Below, piece after piece: positions 1,846-24,793 of a stretch of 24,820 bases of DNA. The stretch covers positions 1 through 24,820 of the forward strand of contig CAIZGT010000332.1 of assembly GCA_903932545.1 (NCBI GenBank). Reading direction: 5' to 3'. Under the pieces are notes generated by a model that saw nothing but the letters and a program-made list of their open reading frames with translations, ran no database searches and was not told where the DNA came from. Position 1 is the first letter of the stretch. Each line of letters begins with the position of its first letter. This DNA is from an uncultured Rhodospirillales bacterium (GTDB lineage Bacteria; Pseudomonadota; Alphaproteobacteria; Acetobacterales; Acetobacteraceae). The translations under genes were made by a program, and so were the position numbers.

Positions 1846-3351
1846 TTGTCCAGCATTGACACGCCCCCTCCTGCCGACGGGATCGACACGCTCAAGCGCC
1901 AATCGGTGCGCGGGGCTGCGGCCACGTTTCTGGCGCAAGGCCTGCGGTTCATTTTGCAGTTTGGCTCGCAAATTGCGCTGGCACGCCTGCTCAGCCCGGC
2001 GGATTTCGGCCTCGTTGCGATGATCGGGCCGGTCCTGATGCTGGTGCAGATATTCAACGAACTCGGCCTATCGCAAGCCACCATCCAGCGTGCCGAGATT
2101 TCACAGCAGGAATTGTCCTCGCTGTTTTGGCTCAATGTCGGGGTGAGCGTGGTTCTGGCGATCATCATGGCAGCGAGTTCCTCTGCTATTGCGCTGTTTT
2201 ACGGACAGCCTGAATTGGTGATGATTTGCATGTCTCTGGCGGGTTTGCTGGTCTCCAGCGGCCTTGCCTCCCAGCAGATCGCCCTGCTCAACCGCCATAT
2301 GCGGTTCAGCGCGCTGGCATGGATTGATATCGTGTGCAGCGCGATCGCCGTGGTGGTGGGGATCACGGCGGCGTGGATGGGCATGCGCTACTGGTCGTTG
2401 GTGCTGATGCAGGCGGCAAATGCGATCACAATTTTGATCATGGCCTGGGCATTGTCCGACTGGCGACCGTCTTGGCCGTCTCGTCACGAAGGCTTTGGCA
2501 ATCTACTGCGCTTTGGTGGCCATGTAACGGGCTATAATCTCATCAACTATGCCGGCACCAATCTCGACAGCGTGTTGATCGGCAAGCTCGGCGGCAGCGT
2601 GGCGCTGGGTTTGTTTGACCGCGCAACCAAGCTGGTGGCCGCGCCGATCTGGCAGATCAGCCTGCCGGTGGCGCGCGTGGCGGTGTCCCTCTTGTCGCGA
2701 CTGAACACCCAGGCGGATCGATATCGCAGCGCCTATCTGCGCATGCTTCAAGGTCTGCTGCTCGCCACGGTTCCTGCGGTGGTGTGCATCGCAATGACCT
2801 CATCGCAATTCGTGCCAATGCTGCTCGGCACCGCCTGGACGGAGGCGGCCCCAATCGTCACCTGGCTGGCCGTTGCCACCGCCTTCGCACCGTTGAGCAT
2901 CAGCTCCTATTGGCTGTTTCTCAGCCAAGATCGGGTCGGTGAGCAACTGTTCTACGTCTGCGTCAAAACCGCCATCGCCATCCTGGCGCTGTTGATCGGG
3001 CTGCAAGGCGGAGCCTTGGGGGTGGCGCAGTCTTACGCCGCCTTTGCCATACTGGTGCATGGCTCCCTGCTCTGGGGTGCCACCCGCACCGGACCCGTCA
3101 GCCATTCTGATGTCCTGCGGGCCTGTTATCCATTTGTGATCGCAGGAGCCGCGATTGCGTCGGCGCTGACCTGGCTGAACGATAGCAGCGCGGCTGAACA
3201 ACTCACGCGTGGTCAATTGTTGTTGTCCGACGTGGTGGCGGCATACGGCGTGTGTGGATTGACCATGCTGTGCACCCCAGAGGGACTGAAAATCGCACGG
3301 GATTTGTGGAATCTCCGCACCCATTTCGGCCATGTGCGCGCACCAAGCTAA
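1846..3351 (+). CDS. wzx: Wzx-type polysaccharide flippase (PST family)
   Basis: 501 aa with many TM segments. It begins with the family pattern SVRGAA...LARLLSPADFGLVAM...ELGLSQATIQR. TTG start with AAGGA RBS at 1833-1837. Confidence 0.92.
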   Translation: MSSIDTPPPADGIDTLKRQSVRGAAATFLAQGLRFILQFGSQIALARLLSPADFGLVAMIGPVLMLVQIFNELGLSQATIQRAEISQQELSSLFWLNVGVSVVLAIIMAASSSAIALFYGQPELVMICMSLAGLLVSSGLASQQIALLNRHMRFSALAWIDIVCSAIAVVVGITAAWMGMRYWSLVLMQAANAITILIMAWALSDWRPSWPSRHEGFGNLLRFGGHVTGYNLINYAGTNLDSVLIGKLGGSVALGLFDRATKLVAAPIWQISLPVARVAVSLLSRLNTQADRYRSAYLRMLQGLLLATVPAVVCIAMTSSQFVPMLLGTAWTEAAPIVTWLAVATAFAPLSISSYWLFLSQDRVGEQLFYVCVKTAIAILALLIGLQGGALGVAQSYAAFAILVHGSLLWGATRTGPVSHSDVLRACYPFVIAGAAIASALTWLNDSSAAEQLTRGQLLLSDVVAAYGVCGLTMLCTPEGLKIARDLWNLRTHFGHVRAPS

Positions 3352-7015: not shown

Positions 7016-7573
7016 TTAGTAACGGCGCTCATAAACATTCACCACGTCACCGGGGGCGATAAAGGAAACCGGCGTTACCTTGCCCGACACCGCTCGGTTG
7101 TCCGTCGTGCGCACCACCGAGGCGTAATCCTCAACCGCGCGATAGGTAAACCCGCCAGCCACCGCCACCGATGTCAGCATCGTCATCCCAGGCTGGAAGG
7201 CATATTGGCCGGGCTTGGCCACTTCACCGAGCACGAAGATCGGTCGATAGGCGATCACCTCCACCGCCACACTCGGATCACGCAACAGGTTTCGCGATTT
7301 GATCTCGGTGGCGATGTTGCCATCCAGCTGCTCCGGCGTCAGCCCGGCAGCATGCACCGCACCGAGCAACGGCAAGGCGACATTGCCGCGATCATCCACC
7401 CTAAACTCCCCGGTCAACTGCTCTTCGCCGAAGGTGATAACCCGGATCTGATCGCCGGCGCCGAGCTTATAGGCGTCATTGTGATAGGCAGCGATGGGTG
7501 TGAGGTCCGCACCCGGCGTGCACCCAGCGGCGATCAGCAACAGGCAGGGTGCAGCCAACATATATCGCTTCAT
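7016..7573 (-). CDS. wza: Polysaccharide export OPX lipoprotein (Wza/GumB/ExoF family), short form
   Basis: Poly_export motif YKLGAGDQIRVITFGEEQLTGEFRVDDRGNVALPLLG; SLBB segment VLGEVAKPGQY..AVAVAGGFT; lipobox-like IAAGC. The RBS AAGGA fits the ATG at 7573 better than 7582. Confidence 0.92.
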   Translation of the reverse strand: MKRYMLAAPCLLLIAAGCTPGADLTPIAAYHNDAYKLGAGDQIRVITFGEEQLTGEFRVDDRGNVALPLLGAVHAAGLTPEQLDGNIATEIKSRNLLRDPSVAVEVIAYRPIFVLGEVAKPGQYAFQPGMTMLTSVAVAGGFTYRAVEDYASVVRTTDNRAVSGKVTPVSFIAPGDVVNVYERRY

Positions 7574-7675
7574 GATCGTCATCCTTGCTTCTGAGAAATA
7601 TTGAATGGAATATGGATAAAATAGGAATGAATTATATATATGTATGTTAATTGCTATATAAAATAAACAATCCCT

Positions 7676-11700: not shown

Positions 11701-11893
11701 CAGCACGATGGTGCATGTGGCGACGGTGGATTTGCTGAACCCTGCGAGCGGCGGCTTGCCGCTGGTTGCGCGCGGCGTATTGGTGCAGGCTATCACCTTC
11801 GACGGTGCCGCCAACACAATCTTGCCGACGAGCCTCTACAGCAACGTTGCGGCCAATTTCAGCCTGCCGATCCCGATTGCAGCGCCGATCTGA
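8765..11893 (+). CDS. Large GH16 glycanase with six CBM60-like Ca-dependent carbohydrate-binding repeats
   Basis: N-terminal GH16 (GYFEIRAQ, FWSAFWML, catalytic ELDVFE, YHAYGLLW, IDYIRAY). Repeats DTL.L.(I/L)SEDAY.G(D/N)AQFT(V/I)S..G.QQGG...VNFLND.YGG....DRNLY start near 9617, 9992, 10328, 10724, 11141 and 11546. No signal peptide. Confidence 0.88.
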   Translation: MPQLSLVGYHLTYDNEFTNSAAFVTSANGSVGFANSYSFGRSLPSNGEAEYYVDPNAGPSPFSVQNGELTITAQPTLAGQYTAGLPYSSGLISTENSFSQNTGYFEIRAQTPYVQGFWSAFWMLPVGGGGNPELDVFEQPNLEGNNAYWSYANPSDLFKGGGFNNTGENLSAGYHAYGLLWTTTSVSFFLDGLQIGPTVDMPPDFTQKMYMIANLAVGGAGSWPGQPTSVTTAQYKIDYIRAYSLDPLVPTVALQTISSPDAANTTPSYTAPLPIIPATLGTGPDTLILQIAEDYWQGDAQFTISIGGVQQGGVQIATAANAAGQSEAFVILGNFGTNQQFVTINYLNPASGGLPSLTRNLYVLGATLNGTTLPIGASTSAVSVQQTFNFTAPPHVLPAVNVTPALGMLDVLTLSMGETPILVDAQFTISVDGVQQGGVQTTTALASSLQTQAFVVNGDFGIGAHVLSIHFLNPPGALTLYSATLNGTILPGVAQTFTTSTPLVVPFIETSLPVTTIGTGLDVLMLALSEDAYLVNAQFTVSVDGVQQGGIQSVLAGHALGQSQSFAINGTYAVGPHIVTVNFLNDAYGGTTAMDRNLYVLGAQLNGVAITGSALNEYSGGPQSFGFTGTTIVPPPAALLTIPTPATVIGSGADTLALVISEDAYLGNAQFTVAINGIQQGGIQTAIAANAAPYTPLLSQSQVFDIQGSFTGTNIVTVNFLNDSYGGSTGADRNLYILGATLNGAAIAGSVLNEYAGGPQSFSFVGAAIVPPTAVVVTTAIPAAPTVIGAGADTLALSISEDAYLGDALFTVSINGVQQGGIQTAIAANAAPYTPLLAQSQEFDFKGSFTGINVVTVNFLNDIYGGSSTADRNLYVQSATIDGIAIAGGVLSEKSGGPQSFSFTEPTAPVVIPPVVIPPVVIPPVVLDSVTFSLTESAYLGDARVALSLDGVLLGSPTVAFLTSGNISEAFTFTGDFGGSTMVHVATVDLLNPASGGLPLVARGVLVQAITFDGAANTILPTSLYSNVAANFSLPIPIAAPI
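11489..11533 (+). repeat. In-frame tandem repeat, 3 x 15 bp CCCGTCGTCATCCC(A/G), encoding (PVVIP)3 linker
   Basis: Units at 11489, 11504 and 11519, followed by a degenerate PVV. Confidence 0.95.
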
Positions 11894-12643
11894 CTACTCG
11901 AAATTGCCGGAAACCGGGGTGAAGTCAGACAATGCGAGCATCACCTCCATGTCCAAAATCGTCACGCTGCCGCCGCGAACTTCCAAGATGCCATCGCGGC
12001 GGATCTGCTGGAGCGTGCGATTAACGTGAACAATGCTCAATCCCAGCGCGTCGGCGAGCACTTCTTGTGTCAGCGGCATCGGGAACACGTTGTTGATCAC
12101 CATATCGACAGTGTCCAACCGCTCGTGCAACTCCAGCAGCAGATGCACCATTCGTTCATAAGCCGTCTGACGACCCAGGCGCACCACTTGGTCTTGCAGC
12201 GAAAGGCTCTCGTAAATCGATAGCAATCGCACAGCACGCGTAAGGCCGGGATATAGCGACGGGTTGACGTTCACCGCCGTCTCAAGCGTTTTCGCGTCCG
12301 CCAGCACAACGGCGGTCAGCGCCACTACCGTGCAAGTCCCTGGGATCGTTGGGCGTTCCAACCCATGGCACGGATCGCCGGGCAGCATGAAGCTGACAAT
12401 CTGGCGCCGACCGTCGCCCAATGTCCGCTGCCGACAGGCCCATCCCGACAGGATGATGCGCGGCGATGACGGTTTGCTCTCGTTCCACAACTCTTCACGC
12501 GGCAAATAGGAACGGGTTTGGCGAGAAAGATTGTGCAAAATCAGCATCTCGTCCGTCGAGAGCTCCGCCAATGCCGACATCCTCTGCACAGCGGCGTTGG
12601 ATTGCGTGTATTTGCGCGGCAGCAAGGCTGACTGCCCGTTCAT
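11894..12643 (-). CDS. Crp/Fnr-family regulator (FixK-like, no Cys cluster)
   Basis: ILSGWACR..TLGDGRRQIVSFMLPGD, GRQTAYERMVHLLLEL, HTH LTQEVLADALGLSIVHVNRTLQ; ATGA overlap with the receiver gene. Confidence 0.93.
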   Translation of the reverse strand: MNGQSALLPRKYTQSNAAVQRMSALAELSTDEMLILHNLSRQTRSYLPREELWNESKPSSPRIILSGWACRQRTLGDGRRQIVSFMLPGDPCHGLERPTIPGTCTVVALTAVVLADAKTLETAVNVNPSLYPGLTRAVRLLSIYESLSLQDQVVRLGRQTAYERMVHLLLELHERLDTVDMVINNVFPMPLTQEVLADALGLSIVHVNRTLQQIRRDGILEVRGGSVTILDMEVMLALSDFTPVSGNFE

Positions 12644-13029
12644 ACTGTATTTCGCGCCTTCCCGCCGGCCAAAAATTTCAGCGTGCGCAGCAGGGCGGTG
12701 CGATCCACCGGCTTTTCAACGCGCGCCACATGTTGATACGCCGCTGGCAGCACATTGGCTTCATAGGCGGTGACGAACGCAAACGGAACGCCCTGCAAAA
12801 TGAGTTCGTCGGCCACCGGAAACACCGAAAATCCCTGCAGATTGATATCCAGCAGCGCCACATCAATCGCCGATCGTGTCGCCTTCATCGCCTGATCAAC
12901 GCCTGCAAACGGACCCACAATTTCAACACCAAGCGGTTCCAGCAATCGGCGCATTTCTGCAGCGATCGTGTATTGGTCTTCCACGATCATCACGCGAAGG
13001 CCCTGCAAATTCGGATCGAGGGACTTCAT
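12640..13029 (-). CDS. Single-domain response regulator (PFxFATGY/SdrG-like type)
   Basis: VMIVED, ALLDINL (phospho-Asp), VPFAFVTAY, VEKP; ATGA overlap with the kinase stop. Confidence 0.92.
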   Translation of the reverse strand: MKSLDPNLQGLRVMIVEDQYTIAAEMRRLLEPLGVEIVGPFAGVDQAMKATRSAIDVALLDINLQGFSVFPVADELILQGVPFAFVTAYEANVLPAAYQHVARVEKPVDRTALLRTLKFLAGGKARNTV

Positions 13030-14576
13030 TCAACTTCACCAATCAGTGGTCCGCCTTGCGGCGGCGTTTTTAAATCGACCGAGATGTTACAATGCAGTCC
13101 CGAAGGGAGGAATTTCATCTCGGTGCGGGCATCCAACTCATAGGGAAGGCCATGCTCAATCAGCTCCCGCCCGAACCCACTATGCCCGGGCAGATTTGCG
13201 GCAAGAGCCACGCCGCTTTCTTCCCAGTTGAGCGTTAAATGCGTGGTGCCAGCGGCTGCATTTTCGCTCGGCTTGGTCGTCCAAGCGATTTTCACCCGAC
13301 CTTGCGGCTCTGACAGCGCGCCGAATTTCAGCGCGTTGGTGGTCAATTCGTGCAGCGCCAAGCCAAGCGTTTCGGCCACTTTGTCGGTCAGCATCACGCA
13401 AGGCCCGTCAATGCTAACTTGCTCACTGATCTGGCCGCCATGCGCCAACAACTCTTGATGCGCCAGTTCGTCCAGGCTCACCGCCCCATCCACTGTGCGG
13501 CCAAGTGCTGTTTGGGTGCGGGCGAGGGCGGAGATTCGGCCGCTGAGATGGGCCGCAAAATCCTCCAGTCCCGTCGCCGATTGCAATGTGCGGCTCAGCA
13601 GTGAGCGCACCACAGCAAGAATATTCTTCGCGCGATGCTGAACCTCAGCAAGCAGCCGGCGCTGGCGCATTTCGTCGCGGCGGCGCTGGTGGATATCCAC
13701 TGCTGATCCAAACCAGCGCACCAGTTTGCCTGTCGAATCCAGATGTGGCACCGAACGACTAAGGAACCAGCGCCACGTGCCATCGGCTGCGCGCAGACGG
13801 TGTTCATGCTCAAACACGCCGCCTTCCGCGGCGGCAATATCCCACCGCCGCTGGTTTTCAGCGCGCTCATCCGGATGGATCACGCTGCTCCAGCCACCTG
13901 CGAGAAACGCCTCTTCTGTCAGCCCGACATAGTCATAAAATGGCTGGTTGATGTCGTGCACCGACAAATCAGGTGCTGTGGTGAACAGAAAAGCGGGCAC
14001 CACGCTTGCCATCAATCGCACCAATTCCTGATTGGTGGACAATGCAGACGCCCAGCTTGCCGCCGTCTGCGCCATGTTGCCGCTGGCATCGAGTTGGATG
14101 CACCCGTCATCCACGTCGAAAAACAAAATAGTCTGTCCCCCGCCGGGAAGGTTTTCCACGGCAAGGTCAACCCATCCATGCACGGTCGAGCCGTCTGGCT
14201 GCCGCATGGCGTAAGACACTTGATTGGCGCGCACACGCCGCCCGGTCAGTGTCGCCTGATCCATCAAATGCCGCAGCACGCCGCGCAAATCATCGCAGGC
14301 CAATGCCACCACCGACGCCACGCCTGATGCCGGGGGACGCGCCACATAGCTTCTGAGATGTTCGGAGCGGAGCAATTCAACGCCCTGCTGATCAACCACG
14401 ATATAGGCCGGCGCATAGCGCGCAACCAAAGTTTCGGCAGCAAGTCGGGTTGTGGTGCTGATCGGCGGGAGCGAGCGCATTTCAGCTGCCTCATCCATCG
14501 AGTCGGCCAATAGCATCGAGGCAAACAATGAAACGCAGGTATTTTCGGCCGCTCTGCCCACGGTAAACCTCTCCAA
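13026..14576 (-). CDS. Soluble PAS-domain HWE histidine kinase (start uncertain)
   Basis: H-box EVQHRAKNILAVV, N-box LHELTTNALKFGAL, WEESG, SGFGRELI; PAS/PAC IHPDE...EHRLRAADGTWRWF...WFGSAVDIH. No TM segment. Confidence 0.92.
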   Translation of the reverse strand: MERFTVGRAAENTCVSLFASMLLADSMDEAAEMRSLPPISTTTRLAAETLVARYAPAYIVVDQQGVELLRSEHLRSYVARPPASGVASVVALACDDLRGVLRHLMDQATLTGRRVRANQVSYAMRQPDGSTVHGWVDLAVENLPGGGQTILFFDVDDGCIQLDASGNMAQTAASWASALSTNQELVRLMASVVPAFLFTTAPDLSVHDINQPFYDYVGLTEEAFLAGGWSSVIHPDERAENQRRWDIAAAEGGVFEHEHRLRAADGTWRWFLSRSVPHLDSTGKLVRWFGSAVDIHQRRRDEMRQRRLLAEVQHRAKNILAVVRSLLSRTLQSATGLEDFAAHLSGRISALARTQTALGRTVDGAVSLDELAHQELLAHGGQISEQVSIDGPCVMLTDKVAETLGLALHELTTNALKFGALSEPQGRVKIAWTTKPSENAAAGTTHLTLNWEESGVALAANLPGHSGFGRELIEHGLPYELDARTEMKFLPSGLHCNISVDLKTPPQGGPLIGEVE

Positions 14577-14928: not shown

Positions 14929-16251
14929 CTAAAGCGCCACTCTCAGTGTCAGCATGAAGCGATTGGAGTCAAAGCTGGGGCCAGTGACCCCTTGGCTGGT
15001 GCTGCCGCCAGACCGACGGCCGGTGAAATCGTAACTGCCAACCAACTGCAAATTGCGGTTGATCAGCCATGTCGCACTGGCGCCAACGCGGTAAAGGCTC
15101 TGGCTGCCGTGGCCCTGGCTATAATCATCCTGGTAGATCCCAGCGCGGCCCTGAAGCAGAATGTTGCGCTGCAACTCATGGTCGATGCGTGCGATCAGGG
15201 CGGTTTCGGTGAAGGCGGCCACGGTTTCATCCGCCGAATCTTGAACGTGGCGGGTGAGCAATCCAGTGAGCGTGGTCAGCCCGTTGGGATTCCAAATGAC
15301 CGCTGTCTCAACGGTTGGCGCTTGGATGGTTTTGTATTGGCCACTGCGGAAGCTGCGGTTTTCATAGCCCGCCAAAACCCGGAAACGCCAGGTGCTGTCG
15401 GCATCATAATCGATCCCGGCCAACACTGAGGCGTCATTAAAATTGCGCTTTGCCTGAAGTGGGGCGGCATTGGAGTAGTCGGCCACCGCGTCTCGCACCA
15501 CCAGCACCACATTGCGCCGAGGCGCCAATTCATAGCCCACCGTCAGACTTGGCATCGCCACATCGCGGTTGCGGAAGGTCTGCAGGTAGCGCGCGCCGTT
15601 CACACCGCCGTTGTCATAGTCGAACCGCGAGAGCGAAATACCCGGCTGTAGATACCAGCGATTGAACATTGCCTTATACGCGGCACGAAACACATCAATG
15701 CGATATTCGAGCGGTGAACCGAGTTGCGGTGCCTCCAGATCGCGTGGCGTTTGGTTGAGCGTCAAATGGTCGTAACTGGCGCTCAGTTGATCGCGGTCAA
15801 TCGTGTAGGCCCCACCAACGCTTGCCGTCCAATTGGTGTAGGATTGACTGTTGCGGCTCACGAACCGGAAATCATCAACCGATACCACCGCCCTCGCGGT
15901 CGCGTCCGAGTGATCATAATCGGCGCGCAGCACCGCATTGGTCTCCACCAATGTCGAGCCGCTGCCCGATTTGGTGCCCAATATATTGTCGTCATATCCC
16001 ACCGACTCACGCAGTTCAGGGTGCAGCAAGAAACTGCCGAACCGCATCCCAAGGCTGTCATAATCTGGACGGCGCCGGGAGAGCACCGTCACGCCTGCCT
16101 CGTTGGCTGTGCCCGGGATGTCGGTTGTAATCAGTTGATCGAGCAATTGCGCATGGGCTGTCGGCGCGAGTGGCAGCAGCAGGGGCAACGCGAGTAGTGC
16201 AGAATTCGTTTCAGAAAACAATCGGCGGAGTCGTAACAAAACCTGAACCAT
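14929..16251 (-). CDS. Outer-membrane beta-barrel protein of polysaccharide export loci (BBP2/EpsX-like)
   Basis: Signal peptide ending AHA-Q; RRPDYDSLGMRFGSFLLHP..SVGYDDNI; many alternating amphipathic strands; C-terminal strand FMLTLRVAL. Confidence 0.85.
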   Translation of the reverse strand: MVQVLLRLRRLFSETNSALLALPLLLPLAPTAHAQLLDQLITTDIPGTANEAGVTVLSRRRPDYDSLGMRFGSFLLHPELRESVGYDDNILGTKSGSGSTLVETNAVLRADYDHSDATARAVVSVDDFRFVSRNSQSYTNWTASVGGAYTIDRDQLSASYDHLTLNQTPRDLEAPQLGSPLEYRIDVFRAAYKAMFNRWYLQPGISLSRFDYDNGGVNGARYLQTFRNRDVAMPSLTVGYELAPRRNVVLVVRDAVADYSNAAPLQAKRNFNDASVLAGIDYDADSTWRFRVLAGYENRSFRSGQYKTIQAPTVETAVIWNPNGLTTLTGLLTRHVQDSADETVAAFTETALIARIDHELQRNILLQGRAGIYQDDYSQGHGSQSLYRVGASATWLINRNLQLVGSYDFTGRRSGGSTSQGVTGPSFDSNRFMLTLRVAL

Positions 16252-16729: not shown

Positions 16730-17986
16730 ATGGCCGCAGCCCCGCAACTTACCGGCCAGCCCGCCACCGTCATCGCGGTCCCCAAGGCCCGCGTGCAGTC
16801 TGAGCAGGTCCTCTATTTGAGTGCGGCGATCATGGCGATGTCGATGCTGTTGCAACGCTTTGGCCTGCCATTTGGCGGGCAAAGCATCAGCTTGGTTGGG
16901 CCGCTGGGGCTGTTGGTATTTGCCGCGTTTTTGTTGCGGGGCACGCTCGCCTTGGATCGCAAACGGGTGATTTTGTATCTCGCACTGGTCACCTGTGCGG
17001 TCCTTGGCATTGCGTGGCGTGCAGCAGGCTTGGGCTGGACGGGCGGAGAGGCGAGCAGTAATTCACTGCTGCAATTTCTGGTTCTCACCAGCGTCGCCAT
17101 GCTCACCTTCGCCGAGCCGGTGGATGAGACGCGGTTTTTCCGCGCCATCAACCAATTGTTCTTACTGATCGCACTCGCGGGCATGCTGCAATTTGCAGCG
17201 CAGTTTGTGGGGGTGCGGCTGTTCTCCTTCACCGGATTGCTGCCCGATGCAGCGTTGTTTGAGCAGGGCTACCACCTCGAAATCCCGGTCGGCGTTGGCG
17301 ATTTGCTGAAATCGAACGGGTTTTTCCTGGTCGAGCCTTCGGTATTTTCACAAGTGATGGCGTTGGCATTGATCATCGAATTGCTCGCGTTGCGCCGCCC
17401 GCTCTACTTGGCGGCCTTTGCAGCCGGGCTGTTGCTGGCATTTTCCGGCACCGGATGGATTGTGATTGCCACCTTCGTCATCACCGCCCCGCTCGGCATG
17501 GGCAGGCGCGGGTTGATGTTGGCTGCCGTGGTTGTGGCGCTGTTGTTGGCATTGGCAGGGCTTGCGGCGGTGCTCGCCCCGGATGTGATGGCGGTGTTTC
17601 AGGCGCGCCTGGACGAGATTTCCACTCCGGGCACCAGCGGCCATCTGCGCTTCATCACCCCGTTCTGGCTGCTGGGCGACGTGTTCACCGCATCGCCATC
17701 CGCCGCCTTGATTGGCATCGGCAGCGGGGCGGCCGAGCGGTTGACGATGCCGTATGAATACAACGTCAACACGCCGATCAAGATTGCCCTTGAATACGGC
17801 GTGCCCGCGCTGGTGGCTTACGTTCTGCTGTTCGCGATGGCGCGACGGACCGCGCTGCAATCCGCATTGGCGCTGCCCGCCATCGTGTTGTTTTTCTTCA
17901 CCGGCGGGTATCAGCAATTCCCGCCGATGATCTTCATGGTGTTGCTGCTGATATCGATTGCCCGATTGGCCCCGGCGCATCGTTAA
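16730..17986 (+). CDS. wzy: Putative Wzy polysaccharide polymerase / O-antigen ligase-like membrane protein
   Basis: 418 aa polytopic; GFFLVEPSVFSQ, LLLAFSGTG, periplasmic loop ARLDE..TSGHLRF, EYGVP; no other Wzy candidate in the locus. Confidence 0.72.
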   Translation: MAAAPQLTGQPATVIAVPKARVQSEQVLYLSAAIMAMSMLLQRFGLPFGGQSISLVGPLGLLVFAAFLLRGTLALDRKRVILYLALVTCAVLGIAWRAAGLGWTGGEASSNSLLQFLVLTSVAMLTFAEPVDETRFFRAINQLFLLIALAGMLQFAAQFVGVRLFSFTGLLPDAALFEQGYHLEIPVGVGDLLKSNGFFLVEPSVFSQVMALALIIELLALRRPLYLAAFAAGLLLAFSGTGWIVIATFVITAPLGMGRRGLMLAAVVVALLLALAGLAAVLAPDVMAVFQARLDEISTPGTSGHLRFITPFWLLGDVFTASPSAALIGIGSGAAERLTMPYEYNVNTPIKIALEYGVPALVAYVLLFAMARRTALQSALALPAIVLFFFTGGYQQFPPMIFMVLLLISIARLAPAHR

Positions 17987-19157
17987 CCAACGCGTAGAGC
18001 GCCTCGCGCATGTCCGGTCTGGCGCCAGCCGCGCGATAAACCGCCTCGGTTCCGCGCGCGATCTCCTGCCAAGGCGGCACCAATGCCGCGCGAATTCGCG
18101 CCTGTTTCGCGCATTCGGCGGCAAAGGCGCGGTCAGCAATCAGATGTTGCATCGCTTGGCTGAGTGCTCCCACATCGTCCGGTGGCACCAAATGCCCCTC
18201 GCGGCCGTCGAGCAAGGTTTCGCCAAAGCTGCCGAGGCGGGAGGCCACCACTGGGCGACCGCGCGCTAGGGCCAGAAACAACACGCCGCTGGCCTCGATT
18301 TCGCGATAGGGGAACACTGCCACAACGCCCGGCCCGAACAGCGCACCCACCTCCTCGTCGCGCACAAACCGCGGCTCGATGCTCACGCCGTCCGCAATGC
18401 CCGATACTAAGGCCAAGGCGTGCAGCGGGGCGAGGTCCATATAAGGTTTGCCAACGATGCGAATATGCGCCTGGTCGCGCAAATTCTTGGGCAAGCAGGC
18501 GAAAGCCCGGATCAACAGGTCCGCCCCCTTATAGTGTTTGATTTTGCCAAACAGCGTGAAGGTCAGGCGGCCGGTCATCGGATCGGCTGGCCCTGCCACA
18601 GGCTCGGTCAACAGCCCATGCGGCAACACCATCACGCGCTCTGGCGCGATGCCTTGCGCGAGCAGGCGGGCTTGCCCCTGTTCAGTGTGCACGATCAGAC
18701 GCGCAAACTTGCTTAAGCAATTCTGGTAGCCAAGGCTTTGCAAGCGCGAACTCGGCGCACCATTGAACGGGTCGGTGTCATGCACCGTCAGCACCAGCGG
18801 CGCGATCCGCGCCAATGCGTCAAGCGTCAGCTGGTCCACCAGCGGCAGCGCCAACCACTGAAAATGAATCACATCCGGCCTTTCCCGCCGCAACCGCCGC
18901 ACCAAAGCGCGCATCGACCACGCATGATCCACGCCCTTGATGCCAAGCCGCAAGGCAGAGGGCAGCGCCGCAACGATGCGGTGGTTGCTCAGGCGATAGA
19001 AATCCTCTGCCAGATTTGCCCCCCCTGTGGCACCGTCATGCGCCCCGGCGCGGCGACCATGCAGGGTGACTGCGTGCCCATTGCCCTGTAATCCACCAAG
19101 CAATGCGCGGTCATACGGCAACGTGAACAGCGATGGATCGATGATAGAAATGCGCAT
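17934..19157 (-). CDS. Glycosyltransferase family 4 (GT-B)
   Basis: True start ATG 19157 (MRISIIDPSLFT), TGATG-coupled to the upstream GT2. Motifs LVLTVHD, FGKIKHYKG, FPYREIEASGVLFLALARGRPVVASRLG. Confidence 0.92.
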   Translation of the reverse strand: MRISIIDPSLFTLPYDRALLGGLQGNGHAVTLHGRRAGAHDGATGGANLAEDFYRLSNHRIVAALPSALRLGIKGVDHAWSMRALVRRLRRERPDVIHFQWLALPLVDQLTLDALARIAPLVLTVHDTDPFNGAPSSRLQSLGYQNCLSKFARLIVHTEQGQARLLAQGIAPERVMVLPHGLLTEPVAGPADPMTGRLTFTLFGKIKHYKGADLLIRAFACLPKNLRDQAHIRIVGKPYMDLAPLHALALVSGIADGVSIEPRFVRDEEVGALFGPGVVAVFPYREIEASGVLFLALARGRPVVASRLGSFGETLLDGREGHLVPPDDVGALSQAMQHLIADRAFAAECAKQARIRAALVPPWQEIARGTEAVYRAAGARPDMREALYALVNDAPGPIGQSISAATP

Positions 19158-20332
19158 CAGGCGGTTACCTCCGGCGAAACCGCAGGAGCGAGGCGTGATG
19201 AACCCGGCGGGCTCCAAGTTTGGAAGCGTTGGCCGCGCACCGAATACCAAACGCCAATTCCGGTTGCCACAAACGCCGAGAGGATCGAGCGCACCGCCAA
19301 AATCGGCCCGCGCGTTGCTGTCGCCAACAGGATCGCAGCCAGCAAACCAACGCCGACCACCACGGCCAAAACCGTCCATGCCTGCGCCAACACCAAGCCC
19401 GCGATGAGCGTAAAGGCGCTTGCCGCCAGCAGGTAGATCACCAGCCAGCGCAGCAATTTGTGTGAGACGTATTTGTATTGATCGATCAGCCCCAACCGCC
19501 GCAATTTCGGGCTCAAGGCGCGATGGACATTGAACGCCTGGCACGCGATGCGGATCTTGCGACGGAACTCTTCCTGCGGCTGCGACACCCCATCTTCAAA
19601 CGCATGCGCCTGCGCCGCGCGCACCACGCGGCCGCCATTGCACAGCACCATCAGCGAGACATACATATCGTCAATCAAATCCGCCGGTGGCGCGCGATGG
19701 CTTGAACGACGCAGCGCAAAGATCGAACCATCCGCCCCGATGATCGACCCGCTGACACTTTCCAACCGTTTAATCTGCTCCTCCAGCCGCCAATACAGCG
19801 ATCCGGTGGCAGCCGTCGCATTGCCGTCAGACGCGCCATAACGCAGATGGCCACACACCAAGCCGATACCGGGGTCGGCAAATGGGGCCAACAAATGGTC
19901 AATTGCGTCAGGCGCAAACATCACGTTGGCATCACTGAACACCAAGCATTCAGCATCCGTCATGCCGACCAACAGGTTCATCCCATGGGTTTTGCCCATG
20001 CGTTGCGGCGAGTTGATCACGCTCAGTTCGGGGTAATATCCGCCGAGAATCTCTGCCGTGCGGTCGCTTGCGGCATCGACGTAAACCAGGATTTCCATGT
20101 GCGGATACGAAGCCCGCAACGCCAGCATGTTCTCCACCTTGGCGCGGATCACCTTCTCCTCGTTATAGGCACACACGCACAGCGCCACACTGCGCGGCGG
20201 TTGACCGCGCCTGAACGGGCGGCGGCGCAGACGGGCCAACGCCATCAGGCTCAGCGGATAGGAGGTGAAAGGGTGAAGTGCGAGCGCCAGCAGCATCACA
20301 CTCGCGGCGATCAGCCAAAAACTTACGGACAT
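19157..20332 (-). CDS. Glycosyltransferase family 2, membrane-anchored
   Basis: CAYNEE, YVDAASD, VFSDAN, GADGSIFALR, LIDD, EEFRRKIRI; TM helices at both ends; GGAG RBS. Confidence 0.93.
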   Translation of the reverse strand: MSVSFWLIAASVMLLALALHPFTSYPLSLMALARLRRRPFRRGQPPRSVALCVCAYNEEKVIRAKVENMLALRASYPHMEILVYVDAASDRTAEILGGYYPELSVINSPQRMGKTHGMNLLVGMTDAECLVFSDANVMFAPDAIDHLLAPFADPGIGLVCGHLRYGASDGNATAATGSLYWRLEEQIKRLESVSGSIIGADGSIFALRRSSHRAPPADLIDDMYVSLMVLCNGGRVVRAAQAHAFEDGVSQPQEEFRRKIRIACQAFNVHRALSPKLRRLGLIDQYKYVSHKLLRWLVIYLLAASAFTLIAGLVLAQAWTVLAVVVGVGLLAAILLATATRGPILAVRSILSAFVATGIGVWYSVRGQRFQTWSPPGSSRLAPAVSPEVTA

Positions 20333-20371: not shown

Positions 20372-22588
20372 TCAGGCTGCGTTGATCATCACCATCGCCA
20401 AGGGTGCCGCATTGCCGTGGCTCAGCTTTGTCGCTGCCTCAAGCACGTCCGATTGCTCGGTTCGCGGGTCCACCAGCAGAACGGTGGCATCGGTGCGCAG
20501 CACCAAAGTCGCCGTGTCCGTGGCATTGGCGGCAGGGGCATCCATCACCACCAGGTCGTAATCCTGCTTGGCTTCGACCAGCAGATTTTGAAACCCGACG
20601 CTGCTGAGCAGCCGATGGCTGTTGGCGATTTTGCCGCTGACGAGCAGCAGATCGAGCGGGCTGTCAAAATCCGCCTCAATCGCATCGCGCCAGTCCATCC
20701 GGCCTTCCAGCACGTCTGAAAGCCCGTTCATGTCAGTGCTCAGCAGGCTTGCGATGGTCGGAGCGCCCAGATTGCCTTCAATCAACAGCACCCGCTCGCC
20801 ATCGGCGGCAGCTACGCGGGCGAAGGCTGCGGCAATTGAGGCAGCAGGATTGCCACGCGCTTCCACCGCATCGCTAAACACCACGCAGCGTGGTGCCTTA
20901 TTGCGCCCGATAAACCGCAACTTGGCTCGCAGCTTTCGCATCGCCTCCGCCGCCGGGCCGGTGGGCGCGGTGATCACTTGGGCAACAAGCGCCCGTCGGC
21001 CTGATGTGGTGCCTGATTGCGTGAATGAACGCGGGAAGCTCGCCAGCACCGGAAGGCCGGTGGCCCGCATCAGGTCGGGGCCAGACTCGAACACGTCCAC
21101 GCTGCTCCGGCGGGTGAAGGCAAGCAGGCAGCCGATCAGCAACCCGCTCAATCCGCCCGCGCCAGTGATCATCTTCACATTCGGCCCGGATGGGCTGCCC
21201 GGTGCCACTGCGGCGCTGAGAATGCGCACGTCTGGCGTCTCTGTCCCGCTCGGTTGCGCCACCGTCTGCTGGCCGCGTGAGAGCAGTGTTTGGTAAAGAT
21301 TGCGCCGTGTGGTGGCTTCTTGCTGCAATTCGGCGAGCTTGGCCTGCGCATTTTCGGTCTGCACCGCACCTTGGCGGGCGTCAGCAAGCTGGCGTTTGAT
21401 ATCCGCCTCTTGCTCACGCGCCACCCGCAGCTGCGCCCCCATTGATGCCACGATGCGCTGCACTTCGCCCCCAATCTGGTTGCGCGTTGCATTCAGATCG
21501 GCATTGGCCGCGCGCATCGGCGGATAATCCGCCCCATAGCGCGACGACAATTCTGCCACTCGACGAGACGCCACACTCTCTTGTTCGCGCAAACGCGAGA
21601 TGGTGGGCGAACCCAACACGCCCGCCAACGCATCCGACATGCCCTGTTTGGACAGCGTATTGGCGCGGTCCCAATTGGCTTCCAACTGCGCGCGCTCCAC
21701 ACTGGCGCGGGCTGCGGCGGAGGCCAGTTCCTCAAGCTGCTGCTGCCCCACACTGCCCGCGCGCAAGCCCACCAATTGGCTGTTGGTGCGCAGTTCGAGC
21801 ATCTGTTTTTCGATGCCCTCCACGTCGGTCTTGGCCTGTTGAATGCGCTGAAGCATCACATCATTCGCCCCGCGATTGGCGTCGATCCGCCGTGCCGCGC
21901 GGCCTTCGATGTAGGTGGCGATCAGTGTGTTCACCACATCAGCGGCCCGTTGAGGGCTTTGTGCGGTAAAGGAGGTGGAGATCACCAAGCTGCGGTTATC
22001 TTGGAACACCGCCAAAGCTTTGGTGACCTTGTCCAACACCGCCTCATTGATGCTCGCTTGGCTCAAACCGGCACTGGCGACGCTGAACGGAAGCCACGAT
22101 TCCACGTTGTGCTTGATCGCCTGCGCCGTGCCGCGAGGTTGCAGCGCCTCGTTGAATTCCGGGTCGCGGTCCAACCCCAAGCGGGTGATCACGGTTTGCA
22201 CTTGGGCGCGGGAGGTCAGCGCCTGCACTTCAGTTCGCACCCATGGCATCGGGTCAGGCGCGTTTTCACCACGCAAAGCGCCTTGTAATTCCGGGATCAC
22301 AAACCGCTCGCCCTCCACCGTGATGGCGCTGGAAGCGACGTAGGTTTTTGGTAAGGACTGCGCCAACACAAAGGCACCTCCGCCACCGATCACCGCACAT
22401 GTCCCAATCAGCCACGCGTGGTGGGCCAGCAATTTGCCAATTTGGGGCAATTGCAAAACACCGCCCTTGTCGCGCGTGTCAGGCAAGGCTGCGGCGGTGA
22501 GAGGGAGGTCCATCACTTTTTTTCCAATGCTGTTGGTTGGCCCGAAGGGGCGGGGCCCGCGTGTGGGGCTATAGGTTGGGGAGGACAT
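20372..22588 (-). CDS. wzc: Wzc/GumC-type polysaccharide co-polymerase with degenerate (pseudo)kinase domain
   Basis: Wzz-like N-terminal TM (LPKTYVASSAI), coiled-coil periplasmic domain, RILSAAVAPGSPSGP plus second TM, AEAMRKLRAKL. The kinase-fold C-terminus has altered motifs. Confidence 0.9.
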   Translation of the reverse strand: MSSPTYSPTRGPRPFGPTNSIGKKVMDLPLTAAALPDTRDKGGVLQLPQIGKLLAHHAWLIGTCAVIGGGGAFVLAQSLPKTYVASSAITVEGERFVIPELQGALRGENAPDPMPWVRTEVQALTSRAQVQTVITRLGLDRDPEFNEALQPRGTAQAIKHNVESWLPFSVASAGLSQASINEAVLDKVTKALAVFQDNRSLVISTSFTAQSPQRAADVVNTLIATYIEGRAARRIDANRGANDVMLQRIQQAKTDVEGIEKQMLELRTNSQLVGLRAGSVGQQQLEELASAAARASVERAQLEANWDRANTLSKQGMSDALAGVLGSPTISRLREQESVASRRVAELSSRYGADYPPMRAANADLNATRNQIGGEVQRIVASMGAQLRVAREQEADIKRQLADARQGAVQTENAQAKLAELQQEATTRRNLYQTLLSRGQQTVAQPSGTETPDVRILSAAVAPGSPSGPNVKMITGAGGLSGLLIGCLLAFTRRSSVDVFESGPDLMRATGLPVLASFPRSFTQSGTTSGRRALVAQVITAPTGPAAEAMRKLRAKLRFIGRNKAPRCVVFSDAVEARGNPAASIAAAFARVAAADGERVLLIEGNLGAPTIASLLSTDMNGLSDVLEGRMDWRDAIEADFDSPLDLLLVSGKIANSHRLLSSVGFQNLLVEAKQDYDLVVMDAPAANATDTATLVLRTDATVLLVDPRTEQSDVLEAATKLSHGNAAPLAMVMINAA

Positions 22589-23940
22589 CAGGCGCGCGAT
22601 GCAAAGCTATGCAGCGACAATGTCGGCAATATCGTGATGGCCTCAGCGCGGAGTGCGACCTGCGGCGCTTCATGCGCCGCTGCATGCAGCAACACGTGGT
22701 GCATCAGGTTGCGCTCAGCAAACACGTAGAGGCCGGAGCAGATGCCGTAGGGTTGCAACACTTGCGCGGCCTGCAGACGCGCCCAGCAATTCGACGACAC
22801 GAAATATCCGCCGATGCTCACACCGCCCTGTTCGGCGGGCAACACGCTGAGCCGCCCCCAGGCATCTTGCCCAGCGGTGGCCACATGACGCAGCGCCGCG
22901 AGCATTTCGCGGTCCTGGCCGTTGGCGGTAAGTTCGGAAAATAGCACCAACACCCGCGGATTGGCGTCGGCCAGCAGGCCTGCCACCGCAGTGTCGAAAT
23001 CAGCATCAGATACCAAAGTATCATCACGCTGAGCCGTGGCCTGTGCCAGTCGCAGCGCCAGTAATTGCGCCATATACGGCATGCCGCGCGCCAGCTCGAC
23101 AACCCGCGCCACGGCGGTTGGCATGAAAGTAAAGCCGGTCTCGCGCGCACCTTTGGCCATCAGCGCTGCCACATCTTGGTCGCTGAACAACGGCAAATGC
23201 ACGCCCACAACGTTGCGCTGAATCGACGGATGCTGGCCCAAAATCTGATCCAGATTTTCGGACACGCCAACAATCAGAAACCGCAAACCCACATCCCGAT
23301 CCGACAGCTGCTTGATGGCGTCAGCGATGCGTGTGCGGGTGGCAGGGGCGAGCACGCGGTCGAATTCGTCGATCACGCACACCAGGCTGTTGCAAAGCAG
23401 GCGGGAGGGCAGGGCGCAAACATCGCCCGGGCGCAGCTCACGGTTTGGCAGGGCATGCTCACACCCTTCAGTGTCTGCACCACCATCCGGCACCGCCAAC
23501 AGCGAAGACGGCAAATCGCGCATCAGGCCGCGCAGAATGCTATCGAAATTGCTGTCGGCATCACAAGTGTGACGCGCCACCACCACGTCGGATTGGCGCA
23601 GGGTTTCCACCACCATATTGGTGAGCGAGGTTTTGCCCCGACCGCGCTCGGCATACAGCACCACATGGGCGCAATCTTCCTGCAATGCCTGCAAAATTCG
23701 TGTCAGTTCCGGCTGACGTCCGACCAATTGCCGCCGACCATGGCGCGGCTGGGTTGGGGTGAACGCGCGGGACGGCGCCACCAATCGATCCGGCCGCCGC
23801 GCCGCCGCAAGCATCGGCTCTTGCCGCATGCCGGACAGGCTGGGCACAACGCCCATATTCGCCCGGTGCAGTTCAGATGGCTTTTTTTGCAGCCCAAAGA
23901 AACGAAGAAGACCCACGATACCCTCGCTTTGCTGGCTCAT
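22588..23940 (-). CDS. Stand-alone STAND/ORC-Cdc6-like AAA+ ATPase (about 450 aa)
   Basis: Likely ATG 23940. FTPTQP..LVGRQPEL, Walker A AERGRGKTS (23629-23652), Walker B CVIDEFD, GMPYMAQLL (GxP motif); TGATG overlap with wzc. Confidence 0.88.
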   Translation of the reverse strand: MSQQSEGIVGLLRFFGLQKKPSELHRANMGVVPSLSGMRQEPMLAAARRPDRLVAPSRAFTPTQPRHGRRQLVGRQPELTRILQALQEDCAHVVLYAERGRGKTSLTNMVVETLRQSDVVVARHTCDADSNFDSILRGLMRDLPSSLLAVPDGGADTEGCEHALPNRELRPGDVCALPSRLLCNSLVCVIDEFDRVLAPATRTRIADAIKQLSDRDVGLRFLIVGVSENLDQILGQHPSIQRNVVGVHLPLFSDQDVAALMAKGARETGFTFMPTAVARVVELARGMPYMAQLLALRLAQATAQRDDTLVSDADFDTAVAGLLADANPRVLVLFSELTANGQDREMLAALRHVATAGQDAWGRLSVLPAEQGGVSIGGYFVSSNCWARLQAAQVLQPYGICSGLYVFAERNLMHHVLLHAAAHEAPQVALRAEAITILPTLSLHSFASRA

Positions 23941-23980: not shown

Positions 23981-24793
23981 TCAGCAGGCGCCACGACGGC
24001 GGATGACGGCGGGAATCGTGCGGGCGAGGATGGCGAAATCCCGCCAGATGCTCCACGTGCTGACATACTGCGTGTCCAGCGCCACACGCTGGGCATAGGA
24101 CGTGTCTGACCGGCCGCTGACCTGCCAAAGTCCGGTCAGCCCAGGTCGGCCGGCGAAATATTGTGCGATGTTATCGCCGTAGCGCGGCACTTCATCAGCA
24201 ACGATTGGGCGTGGCCCGACCAAGCTCATGTCGAGGCGAAGCACGTTGATCAGTTGCGGGATCTCATCAAGACTGGAAGCGCGCAGCAGACGACCAATTG
24301 CGGTGATGCGCGGATCGTTCTTGAGCTTTTGCGTCTCCCGCCATTCGGCCGCCGCTATTGGGTCGGCTTTCAGCAGTTGCGCCAATATATCGGCGCTGTT
24401 GGTGGTCATGGAGCGGAATTTCAGACAGTTGAACTTACGCCCACCGCGGCCGATGCGGGTGTGGGCGAAAAAGACCGGGCCGCCGTCGATTTTCACGGCA
24501 ATCGCGATCAATCCCAGCAATGGCGAAAGCACGGCAATCCCTGCCAATGCTGCAGAGATGTCAAACACCACCTTGGCGGCCCGCGCCACCGAGCGCGGGG
24601 CCGCATGATAGTGTTGCACCTGCTCGGTCTCGTGTGGCGAAACCCAGTTTTGTTCGCCATCAAACGATACTTTGGCAGTATTCCGCTGGGTCCGCGTCAG
24701 CCATCTTTTGAGATCAACAATCCCGGTTGGTCGTAGATCATCTTCTGAACAAACGCGGTAACTTGGGCTATTAATATCTATAATTTTATCCAT
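23981..24793 (-). CDS. exoY: Priming polyprenyl-phosphate sugar-1-phosphate transferase (ExoY/WbaP C-terminal type)
   Basis: KVVFDI..single TM..GGPVFFAHTRIGRGGRKFNCLKFRSM, DPRITAIGRLLRASSLDEIPQLINVLRLDMSLVGPRP, RPGLTGLWQVSGRS; AGGAG RBS at 24802-24806. The exoY symbol and sugar specificity are inferred. Confidence 0.93.
   Translation of the reverse strand: MDKIIDINSPSYRVCSEDDLRPTGIVDLKRWLTRTQRNTAKVSFDGEQNWVSPHETEQVQHYHAAPRSVARAAKVVFDISAALAGIAVLSPLLGLIAIAVKIDGGPVFFAHTRIGRGGRKFNCLKFRSMTTNSADILAQLLKADPIAAAEWRETQKLKNDPRITAIGRLLRASSLDEIPQLINVLRLDMSLVGPRPIVADEVPRYGDNIAQYFAGRPGLTGLWQVSGRSDTSYAQRVALDTQYVSTWSIWRDFAILARTIPAVIRRRGAC

Follow-up and report, generated by a model that had tools for sequence, protein, structure and literature searches.

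What does an AAA+ ATPase do in the middle of an exopolysaccharide (EPS) operon? Most capsules and secreted polysaccharides of bacteria are products of Wzx/Wzy pathways, whose control is explained by cycles of tyrosine phosphorylation on the co-polymerase Wzc. The stretch of DNA analysed here, hereafter the window, is the entire 24.8-kb contig CAIZGT010000332.1 (24,820 nucleotides) of a 75%-complete metagenome-assembled genome (MAG) of an uncultured Rhodospirillales bacterium, found in one lake-water metagenome run as DNA contigs, while a run search returned no RNA run containing it. The window carries a complete Wzx/Wzy-type EPS locus in which a gene for an ORC/Cdc6-like AAA+ ATPase stands between those for the initiating phosphoglycosyl transferase (PGT) and a Wzc-like polysaccharide co-polymerase of class 2 (PCP-2). 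This AAA+ gene is intact and conserved, coupled to its operon, and co-inherited and sometimes fused with a PCP-2 co-polymerase incapable of autophosphorylation. Its product is most likely a membrane-proximal nucleotide switch on the kinase-dead co-polymerase, a role in which we infer both the binding and the mechanism.

The gene occupies positions 22588-23940 of the minus strand, where an open reading frame (ORF) runs from an ATG at 23940 to a TGA at 22590-22588 and translates into 450 amino acids; the plus-strand translation of the same interval is riddled with stops. A sequence-only reading of the window had drawn this frame and its coordinates, which are real, leaving the strand unsaid and taking a start that probably lies 24 nt too far upstream. 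Most homologues open with the motif MG[LF]F.RLFG, and its counterpart here, the hydrophobic-basic (M)GLLRFFGL, follows a GTG at 23916 (23890..23916, minus strand) that has a GAGGG Shine-Dalgarno sequence 5 nt upstream, whereas the ATG at 23940 has no such site. The homologous N-termini and the Shine-Dalgarno sequence therefore indicate that the true start is probably the GTG, for a protein of 442 amino acids and a gap of 64 nt to the PGT gene, which ends at 23981 on the same strand; measured from the ATG, the gap is the 40 nt previously reported. At the other end, the sequence TGATG (22586..22590, minus strand) joins the ATPase to the co-polymerase by a one-base overlap, the A of the ATPase's TGA also being the A of the Wzc-like gene's ATG, as the sequence-only reading had seen. 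Such coupling recurs among related loci: the distance from the ATPase stop to the nearest in-frame Wzc start is at most 30 nt in 44 of 63 co-oriented loci and the genes overlap in 15 of the 63, a measure that the choice of the nearest start skews towards small gaps.

From its motifs and from a structural model, the encoded protein is predicted to be a soluble AAA+ ATPase that is competent for catalysis and folds into three domains in the manner of ORC/Cdc6. Ahead of the P-loop, the segment AFTPTQP...LVGRQPEL (residues 59-80; 23701..23766, minus strand, as are all ATPase features) contains F60, P62, P65 and R75, invariant in our alignments, and presumably resembles the 'GRExE' segment that precedes the P-loop in ORC/Cdc6 and STAND proteins. 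The Walker A motif AERGRGKTS (residues 97-105; 23626..23652), with invariant G102, K103 and S105, aligns to the P-loops of RuvB and TIGR03015, and the Walker B motif LVCVIDEFDR (residues 187-195; 23356..23382), placed by the alignments and by comparison with TIGR03015, has conserved D191 and E192, followed by D194, invariant in both alignments (A1 and A2), and R195, invariant in A2 and nearly so in A1. An arginine-finger (box VII) position is offered by R242, invariant across 67 sequences, in HPSIQR (residues 237-242; 23215..23232), which aligns to LRQR of TIGR03015 and lies about 7 residues ahead of the stretch aligned to RuvB. The lid motif ARGMPYMAQLL (residues 284-294; 23059..23091) has the GxP form of STAND proteins, with invariant G286 and P288; its RGMPY aligns to 'RGTPRIA' of RuvB in a profile search of solved structures and to 'GIPRR' of TIGR03015, and the RuvB alignment therefore places Tyr or His at the classical sensor-2 arginine position, as in STAND GxP motifs, while R285, two residues before that position, is conserved. 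Across 67 homologues, down to 24% identity, K103, D191/E192, R242 and G286/P288 are invariant or nearly so. The classical AAA+ features (Walker A GK[ST], the Walker B D-E pair and an arginine after strand 4) are thus all present at positions backed by the RuvB and TIGR03015 alignments, and the Walker motifs, arginine-finger-like segment and GxP motif that had been picked out by eye are all there and conserved.

An AlphaFold2 (AF2) model built from the 67 sequences (pLDDT 87.9, pTM 0.83) shows the three domains that characterize ORC1/Cdc6 proteins, namely an AAA+ base, a helical lid and, at the C-terminus, a winged-helix-like domain; the net charge of this last domain (residues 339-430; 22651..22926), which is supported by AF2 secondary structure and fold matches, averages about -1. 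Residues 1-55 are disordered in the model, and the linker that follows the MGLF-type motif is basic, with a mean net charge of about +5 across homologues; the motif itself may dock onto the membrane or onto a partner. Foldseek against the Protein Data Bank ranks ORC/Cdc6 proteins, RuvB and clamp-loader subunits at the top (best 7jgr_A, 2v1u_A and 1fnn_A), and against Swiss-Prot AFDB models it ranks archaeal ORC1-type proteins first; VIA-align, which is independent of Foldseek, puts PAB2304 (2qen) first (Z 18.2, 315 residues aligned), then Cdc6/Orc1 at Z 17-18, then Sso1545. Pfam reports AAA_16 (3e-10), AAA_22 (3e-9) and nSTAND1 (3e-6), the last (PF20703) borderline at 27.6 bits against a cut-off of 27.1. 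Features of the STAND nucleotide-binding (NOD) module are likewise present (LVGRQPEL, GRGKT, RGMPY and the winged-helix domain), and the earlier label of a sensor-less STAND/ORC-like AAA+ ATPase with a winged-helix-like C-terminus is a fair one on the Pfam, model and fold evidence. Pfam finds no domain beyond these NTPase models, neither sensor repeats (TPR, WD40 or LRR) nor an effector domain, and no transmembrane (TM) segment was predicted, in agreement with the sequence-only reading. With the NCBIfam models for RuvB and orc1/cdc6 it reaches about 20 bits, well short of their cut-offs (TIGR02928, orc1/cdc6: 17.7 bits, E 0.0012, against 181.3, outside that family model), and no curated Pfam or NCBIfam family spans the whole length. 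The family is nonetheless sizeable, with 497 clusters at 90% identity (E<=1e-3) and 2,080 representatives at 50% identity with E<=1e-3, 209 of them below 1e-30; named entries read only 'AAA family ATPase' or 'hypothetical protein', and ESM Atlas clusters likewise read 'AAA family ATPase'.

What singles this ATPase out is the state of its neighbour. The co-polymerase gene (20372..22588, minus strand) encodes 738 amino acids of a Wzc/ExoP-like PCP-2a protein with two TM segments (Pfam GNVR and Wzz; NCBIfam eps_transp_fam), whose bacterial tyrosine kinase (BY-kinase, BYK)-like domain (~20372-21094, minus strand) reads ...ARGNPAAS at Walker A, with GNP in place of GK[ST], LLIEGNLGAP at A', and ends in ...MVMINAA with no tyrosine tail; judged by these residues, the domain is predicted to be catalytically dead. 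The same holds for every one of the ~58 full-length ATPase-adjacent Wzc proteins (~58/~58), none of which has GK[ST] or a tyrosine cluster and which carry 0-1 tyrosines in their last 25 residues. Five complete genomes provide an internal comparison: all six ATPase-adjacent BYK-like domains are dead (6/6), and all twelve non-adjacent co-polymerase or BYK genes of the same genomes (12/12) keep GEGK[ST] and 1-4 tyrosines in the tail. A profile of the dead kinase domain, run over 201 Acetobacteraceae genomes, gave bimodal scores, either at least 173 bits or at most 141 bits, the latter from other BYK domains; 20 of the 201 genomes, which are kin, scored high, and 19 of those 20 have the ATPase. 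Two further ATPase/dead-kinase pairs occur in G052, as a split match, and in G062, where Wzc is cut by the contig end. The one high-scoring genome without an ATPase, G057, was dropped as a counter-example because its contig stops at the 3' end of Wzc. Among distant relatives (27-35% identity, from XrtV-exosortase and other alphaproteobacterial EPS loci), a BYK-like partner lacking the Walker lysine, and also the tyrosine cluster, is found in 5 of 8 cases (L136, L133, L195 with two copies, and L197). In these loci, two of them of the XrtV-exosortase kind and the others from two further alphaproteobacterial families, a co-polymerase is present as well, and they replicate the dead-kinase pairing in a partly independent setting. 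Consistent pairing with dead or absent kinases appears, from these comparisons, to be the distinctive trait of the window's branch.

The association extends to the operon as a whole. We collected 80 related loci from one-genome-per-species contigs using alignment A2, nearly all from Acetobacteraceae/Rhodospirillales MAGs (many of them 'metawrap' bins, with one Rhodospirillales record labelled as a lichen MAG) and with Roseomonas and Acidisoma among the named genera; two matches come from MAGs labelled Burkholderiaceae and Janthinobacterium, where mis-binned contigs are possible. Within 10 kb of the ATPase lie Wzc in 70 of the 80 loci and a PGT in 65, and a family 4 glycosyltransferase (GT4) is present in 62, the usual co-oriented order being PGT-ATPase-Wzc-GT2-GT4. 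In 20-kb stretches around 20 Acetobacteraceae matches the ATPase falls within a PGT/Wzc/GT2/GT4/Wzy/barrel cluster 17 times, it remains in the EPS cluster even where gene order is rearranged, and its place within the operon is shared by dozens of genera. Close homologues are therefore not mostly found outside EPS loci (Wzc 70/80, PGT 65/80), nor do they accompany kinase-active Wzc equally often (~58 adjacent Wzc dead; 6/6 adjacent dead against 12/12 others canonical), two outcomes that the sequence-only reading had named as damaging to its proposal. An ATPase match occurs in 30 of the 201 Acetobacteraceae genomes, with an orthologue at E<=1e-58 in 25; beyond the family the distribution is sporadic, with 8 of 400 other alphaproteobacterial genomes (E<=1e-20) and, phylum-wide, 5 of 400 genomes (E<=1e-25). 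Carriers include two isolates, Roseomonas sp. BN140053 and Teichococcus coralli, as well as a Roseomonas MAG and an Acidisoma MAG. One genome, G069, holds a third copy (32% identical) located 2 kb from a stand-alone BYK-like gene lacking the lysine (L143). Longer relatives of 500-700 aa have N-terminal extensions that are mostly without TM segments; one of 667 aa with a long extension (P0157, L132) is flanked by genes for a ParA/MipZ-like ATPase and a PG_binding_1 protein, close to those for UDP-sugar enzymes and a Sel1/SPOR protein, a context that recalls ExeA.

Natural fusions argue most strongly that the ATPase has a role close to the membrane and linked to the co-polymerase. Four clusters, P0138 (880 aa), P0271 (863 aa), P0137 (814 aa) and P0272 (907 aa, from the isolate genome of Teichococcus (Pseudoroseomonas) coralli), join a two-TM co-polymerase part, bounded on either side by a hydrophobic segment, to a basic linker and then an ATPase, and are mutually 50-56% identical over their full length. 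Their co-polymerase part resembles the periplasmic region of the window Wzc (3e-11), their ATPase part is 43-45% identical to the window ATPase, and they have no kinase domain; by this predicted layout, the AAA+ module would occupy exactly the place of Wzc's kinase, behind the second TM segment (TM2). For the fusions other than P0272, with genes at L131:6214-8856 and L187:7104-9695, the context is PGT-epimerase-fusion, followed in L187 by AMP-binding, PP-binding and luciferase-like genes, and the flanks contain no BYK-like sequence, active or dead. A further fusion, P0230 (L133:10001-12508), places the ATPase behind an Acyl_transf_3 membrane domain in an exosortase EPS locus. That locus and L136, which has a free ATPase relative, both contain exosortase EpsH, EpsI, an XrtV accessory protein (NF045607), BBP2_2, Poly_export, Wzz and a stand-alone BYK-like protein lacking the lysine.

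Taken together, these observations make it very probable that the ATPase and the co-polymerase module are partners in function. That it is a dedicated part of the Wzx/Wzy EPS machine, acting on the kinase-dead PCP-2a co-polymerase at the cytoplasmic face of the inner membrane, is a more specific claim in which we place about half of our belief. Under such a scheme, the MG[LF]F.RLFG motif and the basic disordered linker would recruit the ATPase to the membrane or the co-polymerase, ATP binding would drive its self-association through the trans-acting R242, and hydrolysis would reset the assembly, so that the cycle might supply the nucleotide-dependent signal for assembly and disassembly that phosphorylation and dephosphorylation give canonical Wzc, thereby controlling polymerisation and export through a short outer-membrane polysaccharide export (OPX) protein and a BBP2_2 barrel. 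The sequence-only reading went further in suggesting that the ATPase may energise or gate export in place of BY-kinase cycling; we consider a specific substitution for kinase cycling a tentative proposition, somewhat below an even chance. More speculative still, and rather unlikely in our judgement, is that these proteins define a fourth PCP-2 architecture in which an ORC-like AAA+ module, free or fused behind TM2, replaces the tyrosine kinase as the engine of assembly and disassembly, with hydrolysis in an arginine-finger ring or spiral setting chain length and opening the OPX/beta-barrel exit without phosphorylation. When the ATPase was co-folded with the cytoplasmic domain of Wzc, using alignments A2 and A3, the score was 0.01, the mark being 0.32; we count this neither for nor against binding.

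Several points weigh against the proposed role. ORC-type AAA+ proteins usually assemble as pentamers or hexamers, whereas Wzc is octameric. G159, a 100%-complete genome of the same genus (L031/L051; ATPase 72% identical), keeps PGT-ATPase-GT2-GT4-Wzy-barrel, and neither a Wzc query nor the pseudokinase profile found a co-polymerase in this genome; none lies between its ATPase and GT2. A 45%-identical paralogue (L115:9926-11206, on contig 1 of G069) stands outside any EPS locus, among genes for a Sel1-repeat protein, an RND efflux pump, DUF885 and BatA/DUF4159/MoxR proteins, and several relatives at 23-29% identity likewise have no EPS context by queries with EPS genes. Distant relatives in L196 and L180 lie beside a BYK with intact GK[ST], and one in L183 beside a BYK with a K-to-R variant. 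The pairing counts themselves overstate independent support, because the genomes compared are kin. To our knowledge, the pseudokinase systems EpsV/EcpK and HfsA/HfsB have not been reported to need such an ATPase. Finally, in nine XrtA loci examined, all with OPX, co-polymerase, BYK, TIGR03015 ATPase and exosortase, the BYKs beside TIGR03015 keep GK[ST] and tyrosine-rich tails (9/9); the ancestral role can therefore not have been to stand in for kinase cycling, and an ATPase of this superfamily must have a role that is independent of kinase loss.

This last result bears on the relationship between the window ATPase and TIGR03015, the ATPase of XrtA/PEP-CTERM loci. The sequence-only reading had held that the two do not fit, which is correct as regards membership and not as regards ancestry. 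A search with the NCBIfam model (cut-off 324.5 bits) returned no match even at E<=10, and TIGR03015 membership is rejected on that result; hhalign of the ATPase family against nine true TIGR03015 members assigns a probability of 94.6% (E 6.5e-8) to an alignment spanning 211 columns of the base and lid, and an intermediate, P0226, matches both families, which points to remote homology. An ExeA/GspA-like assembly factor, building or placing the co-polymerase-OPX-barrel complex, as ExeA does in the assembly of secretins, whatever the state of the kinase, with the dead-kinase link as a mere lineage trait, would suit this shared base and lid bridged by P0226 and the company that TIGR03015 keeps with working kinases in 9/9 exosortase loci, as well as the BBP2_2 and Poly_export genes that adjoin relatives, the one relative beside PG_binding_1 and Sel1/SPOR proteins, and the SLT transglycosylase encoded in the window. 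Such a factor does not, however, predict a strict dead-kinase pairing or fusions with the ATPase in the kinase's place; the window branch has no TM, periplasmic or peptidoglycan-binding domain and has a winged-helix domain that TIGR03015 lacks, and any role given to TIGR03015 itself is putative. We regard such an assembly factor as unlikely.

The gene's other neighbour suggests a different target. By binding the PGT encoded upstream, the ATPase could control the entry of undecaprenyl phosphate into the pathway, much as a cytoplasmic protein of Myxococcus xanthus is reported to activate a PGT by direct binding (PMC12802240); the adjacency of PGT and ATPase in 65 of the 80 loci, the PGT genes beside distant relatives (P0165 and L197) and the position of the fusions after PGT-epimerase all fit. 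Yet the fusions join the ATPase to a co-polymerase and not to a PGT, the ATPase is not always by the PGT in rearranged clusters (L044, L045, L048, L119 and L121), and the correlation with kinase loss is left unexplained, which makes PGT regulation distinctly improbable. We have equally little expectation of a transcription factor whose winged helix binds DNA in a nucleotide-dependent manner and switches EPS genes, as ORC/Cdc6 or XssQ might lead one to suppose. The best whole-length folds are indeed those of DNA-binding ORC1/Cdc6 proteins and RuvB, and XssQ sets a precedent for a STAND ATPase within an EPS cluster that activates transcription (PMC8205485). The N-terminal helix-turn-helix (HTH) of XssQ is absent here, however, the winged-helix-like domain is on average slightly acidic across homologues, the gene lies mid-operon in translational coupling with a membrane protein, relatives are fused behind co-polymerase TM2 or an Acyl_transf_3 membrane domain, and two Crp/Fnr regulators and an HWE kinase are already encoded in the locus. 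Last, the notion of an unrelated passenger, a defence-type or selfish STAND/AAA+ gene present by chance, draws on the marginal nSTAND1 score and on weak matches to anti-phage ATPase models (E ~0.007) and is extremely improbable, given that PADLOC finds 0 families at E<=0.01, the in-operon position is kept across dozens of genera, effector and sensor domains are lacking and relatives are fused to EPS membrane proteins; the negative PADLOC result and the strict operon synteny led us to reject a defence-system reading.

The remainder of the window holds the other genes of the Wzx/Wzy-type locus. The initiating PGT (ExoY/WbaP-like, Bac_transf) lies at 23981..24793 on the minus strand (Pfam 8e-61; NCBIfam WbaP_sugtrans 2e-94), and downstream of the co-polymerase, on the same strand, follow two glycosyltransferases recognised by Pfam and synteny as conserved operon members, a GT2 at 19157..20332 and a GT4 at 17934..19160, the start of the latter being approximate. 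A probable Wzy-type polymerase with ~11 predicted TM segments and no Pfam match (16730..17986, plus strand) is syntenic in 44 of the 80 loci, and domain searches place a Wzx-type flippase (Polysacc_synt_3) at 1846..3351 (plus strand). Export would use a BBP2_2/EpsL-like outer-membrane beta-barrel (14929..16251, minus strand; Pfam 1e-47) and a short OPX protein of 188 aa, with Poly_export and one SLBB domain, identified by domain search (7016..7582, minus strand); together these are of the same composite kind, OPX plus beta-barrel, as the translocon described for EPS in M. xanthus, and BBP2_2 barrels also accompany ATPase relatives in the XrtV loci L133 and L136 and in L180 and L183. Two family 16 glycoside hydrolases (GH16), one of 1042 aa that resembles EglC-type endo-1,3-1,4-beta-glycanases and has four CBM60 stretches (8765-11893, plus strand) and a smaller one (5161-6069, minus strand), suggest by analogy with succinoglycan that the EPS may be trimmed by dedicated glycanases. 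Two Crp/Fnr-type regulators and one PAS-HWE histidine kinase are encoded at 7676-8491, 11894-12643 and 13026-14576, all on the minus strand; an HWE kinase stands beside the cluster in only 2 of the 80 related loci. No low-molecular-weight protein tyrosine phosphatase (LMW-PTP, Wzb) is encoded in the window, a point in favour of the proposed role, the genome's LMW-PTP matches being on other contigs, and there is no exosortase among the window ORFs and no PF09721 match in the 75%-complete genome.

These results bear on a control problem that extends beyond this one locus. BY pseudokinases and phosphorylation-independent PCP-2 systems are already known (PMC12004946), and the exosortase-locus models of NCBIfam already imply a trio of co-polymerase, kinase and AAA+ ATPase; literature searches turned up no account of a Wzc operon with an ORC-like or AAA_16 ATPase, nor of the fusions or a pairing with dead kinases, and Haft 2006 and the Aquincola paper mention no ATPase. 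With kinase-dead co-polymerases now recognised (EcpK, HfsB), the ATPase family is a concrete, testable candidate for what makes such proteins cycle, and it offers a first functional handle on the little-studied AAA+ ATPases of exosortase and EPS loci (TIGR03015 and kin). As the carriers include isolates, Roseomonas sp. BN140053 and Teichococcus coralli, genetics should be feasible.

Among the known systems closest to the window protein are TIGR03015 and the wider ExeA/GspA/MshM group (AAA_22); the Walker A, Walker B, QR arginine and G-x-P lid of TIGR03015 align with its own. TIGR03015 is likewise encoded in Wzx/Wzy-type EPS loci, beside co-polymerase, BY-kinase-like and OPX genes and in many cases one for a beta-barrel. 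It differs in beginning with MYESFYGF..KPF..PDP, where the window family has MGLF..LFG, a basic linker and AFTPTQP; in lacking the additional winged-helix-like C-terminal domain; in partnering working kinases, as in all nine loci examined, whereas the window family partners dead ones; and in belonging to exosortase loci, a setting found neither in the window nor in its 75%-complete genome, though some distant relatives do occur in XrtV loci.

Further parallels are EpsV/EcpK of Myxococcus xanthus and HfsA/HfsB of Caulobacter, phosphorylation-independent PCP-2 systems with BY pseudokinases, for which the driver of co-polymerase cycling has been stated to be an open question (PMC12004946, the 2025 EcpK paper); that article mentions no such ATPase, 'AAA' occurring in it 0 times. 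Like the window system, these combine a Wzx/Wzy co-polymerase and a kinase-like domain missing its catalytic residues and tyrosine tail with a composite OPX/beta-barrel translocon. In the window, by contrast, co-polymerase and pseudokinase share one polypeptide, the PCP-2a layout, and a separate, intact AAA+ ATPase gene lies immediately upstream.

By fold, the best whole-length matches are archaeal ORC1/Cdc6 and 'ATPase_2' proteins (PAB2304, 2qen; Sso1545, 2fna), which share the pre-P-loop segment and the arginine after strand 4; identity is only 13-16%, and the window ATPase departs from them in having Tyr or His at the sensor-2 arginine position, a non-basic winged helix and an EPS context. 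XssQ, which activates transcription of the synechan (xss) EPS cluster in Synechocystis and binds DNA in electrophoretic mobility shift assays (PMC8205485), is also a STAND/AAA_16-type NTPase inside a Wzx/Wzy EPS cluster; it differs in its N-terminal HTH, and it is the window ATPase whose relatives are fused to membrane proteins. The canonical Wzc BY-kinases (E. coli Wzc, S. aureus CapB) are MinD/SIMIBI-like, unlike this AAA+ protein with its arginine finger and lid, in which checks of fold, Walker A' motif and tyrosine tail found no BY-kinase feature and no tyrosine cluster. What these kinases have in common with it is position: they are cytoplasmic P-loop NTPases joined to or associated with the C-terminal side of TM2 of a co-polymerase, and that is the place the fusion ATPases take.

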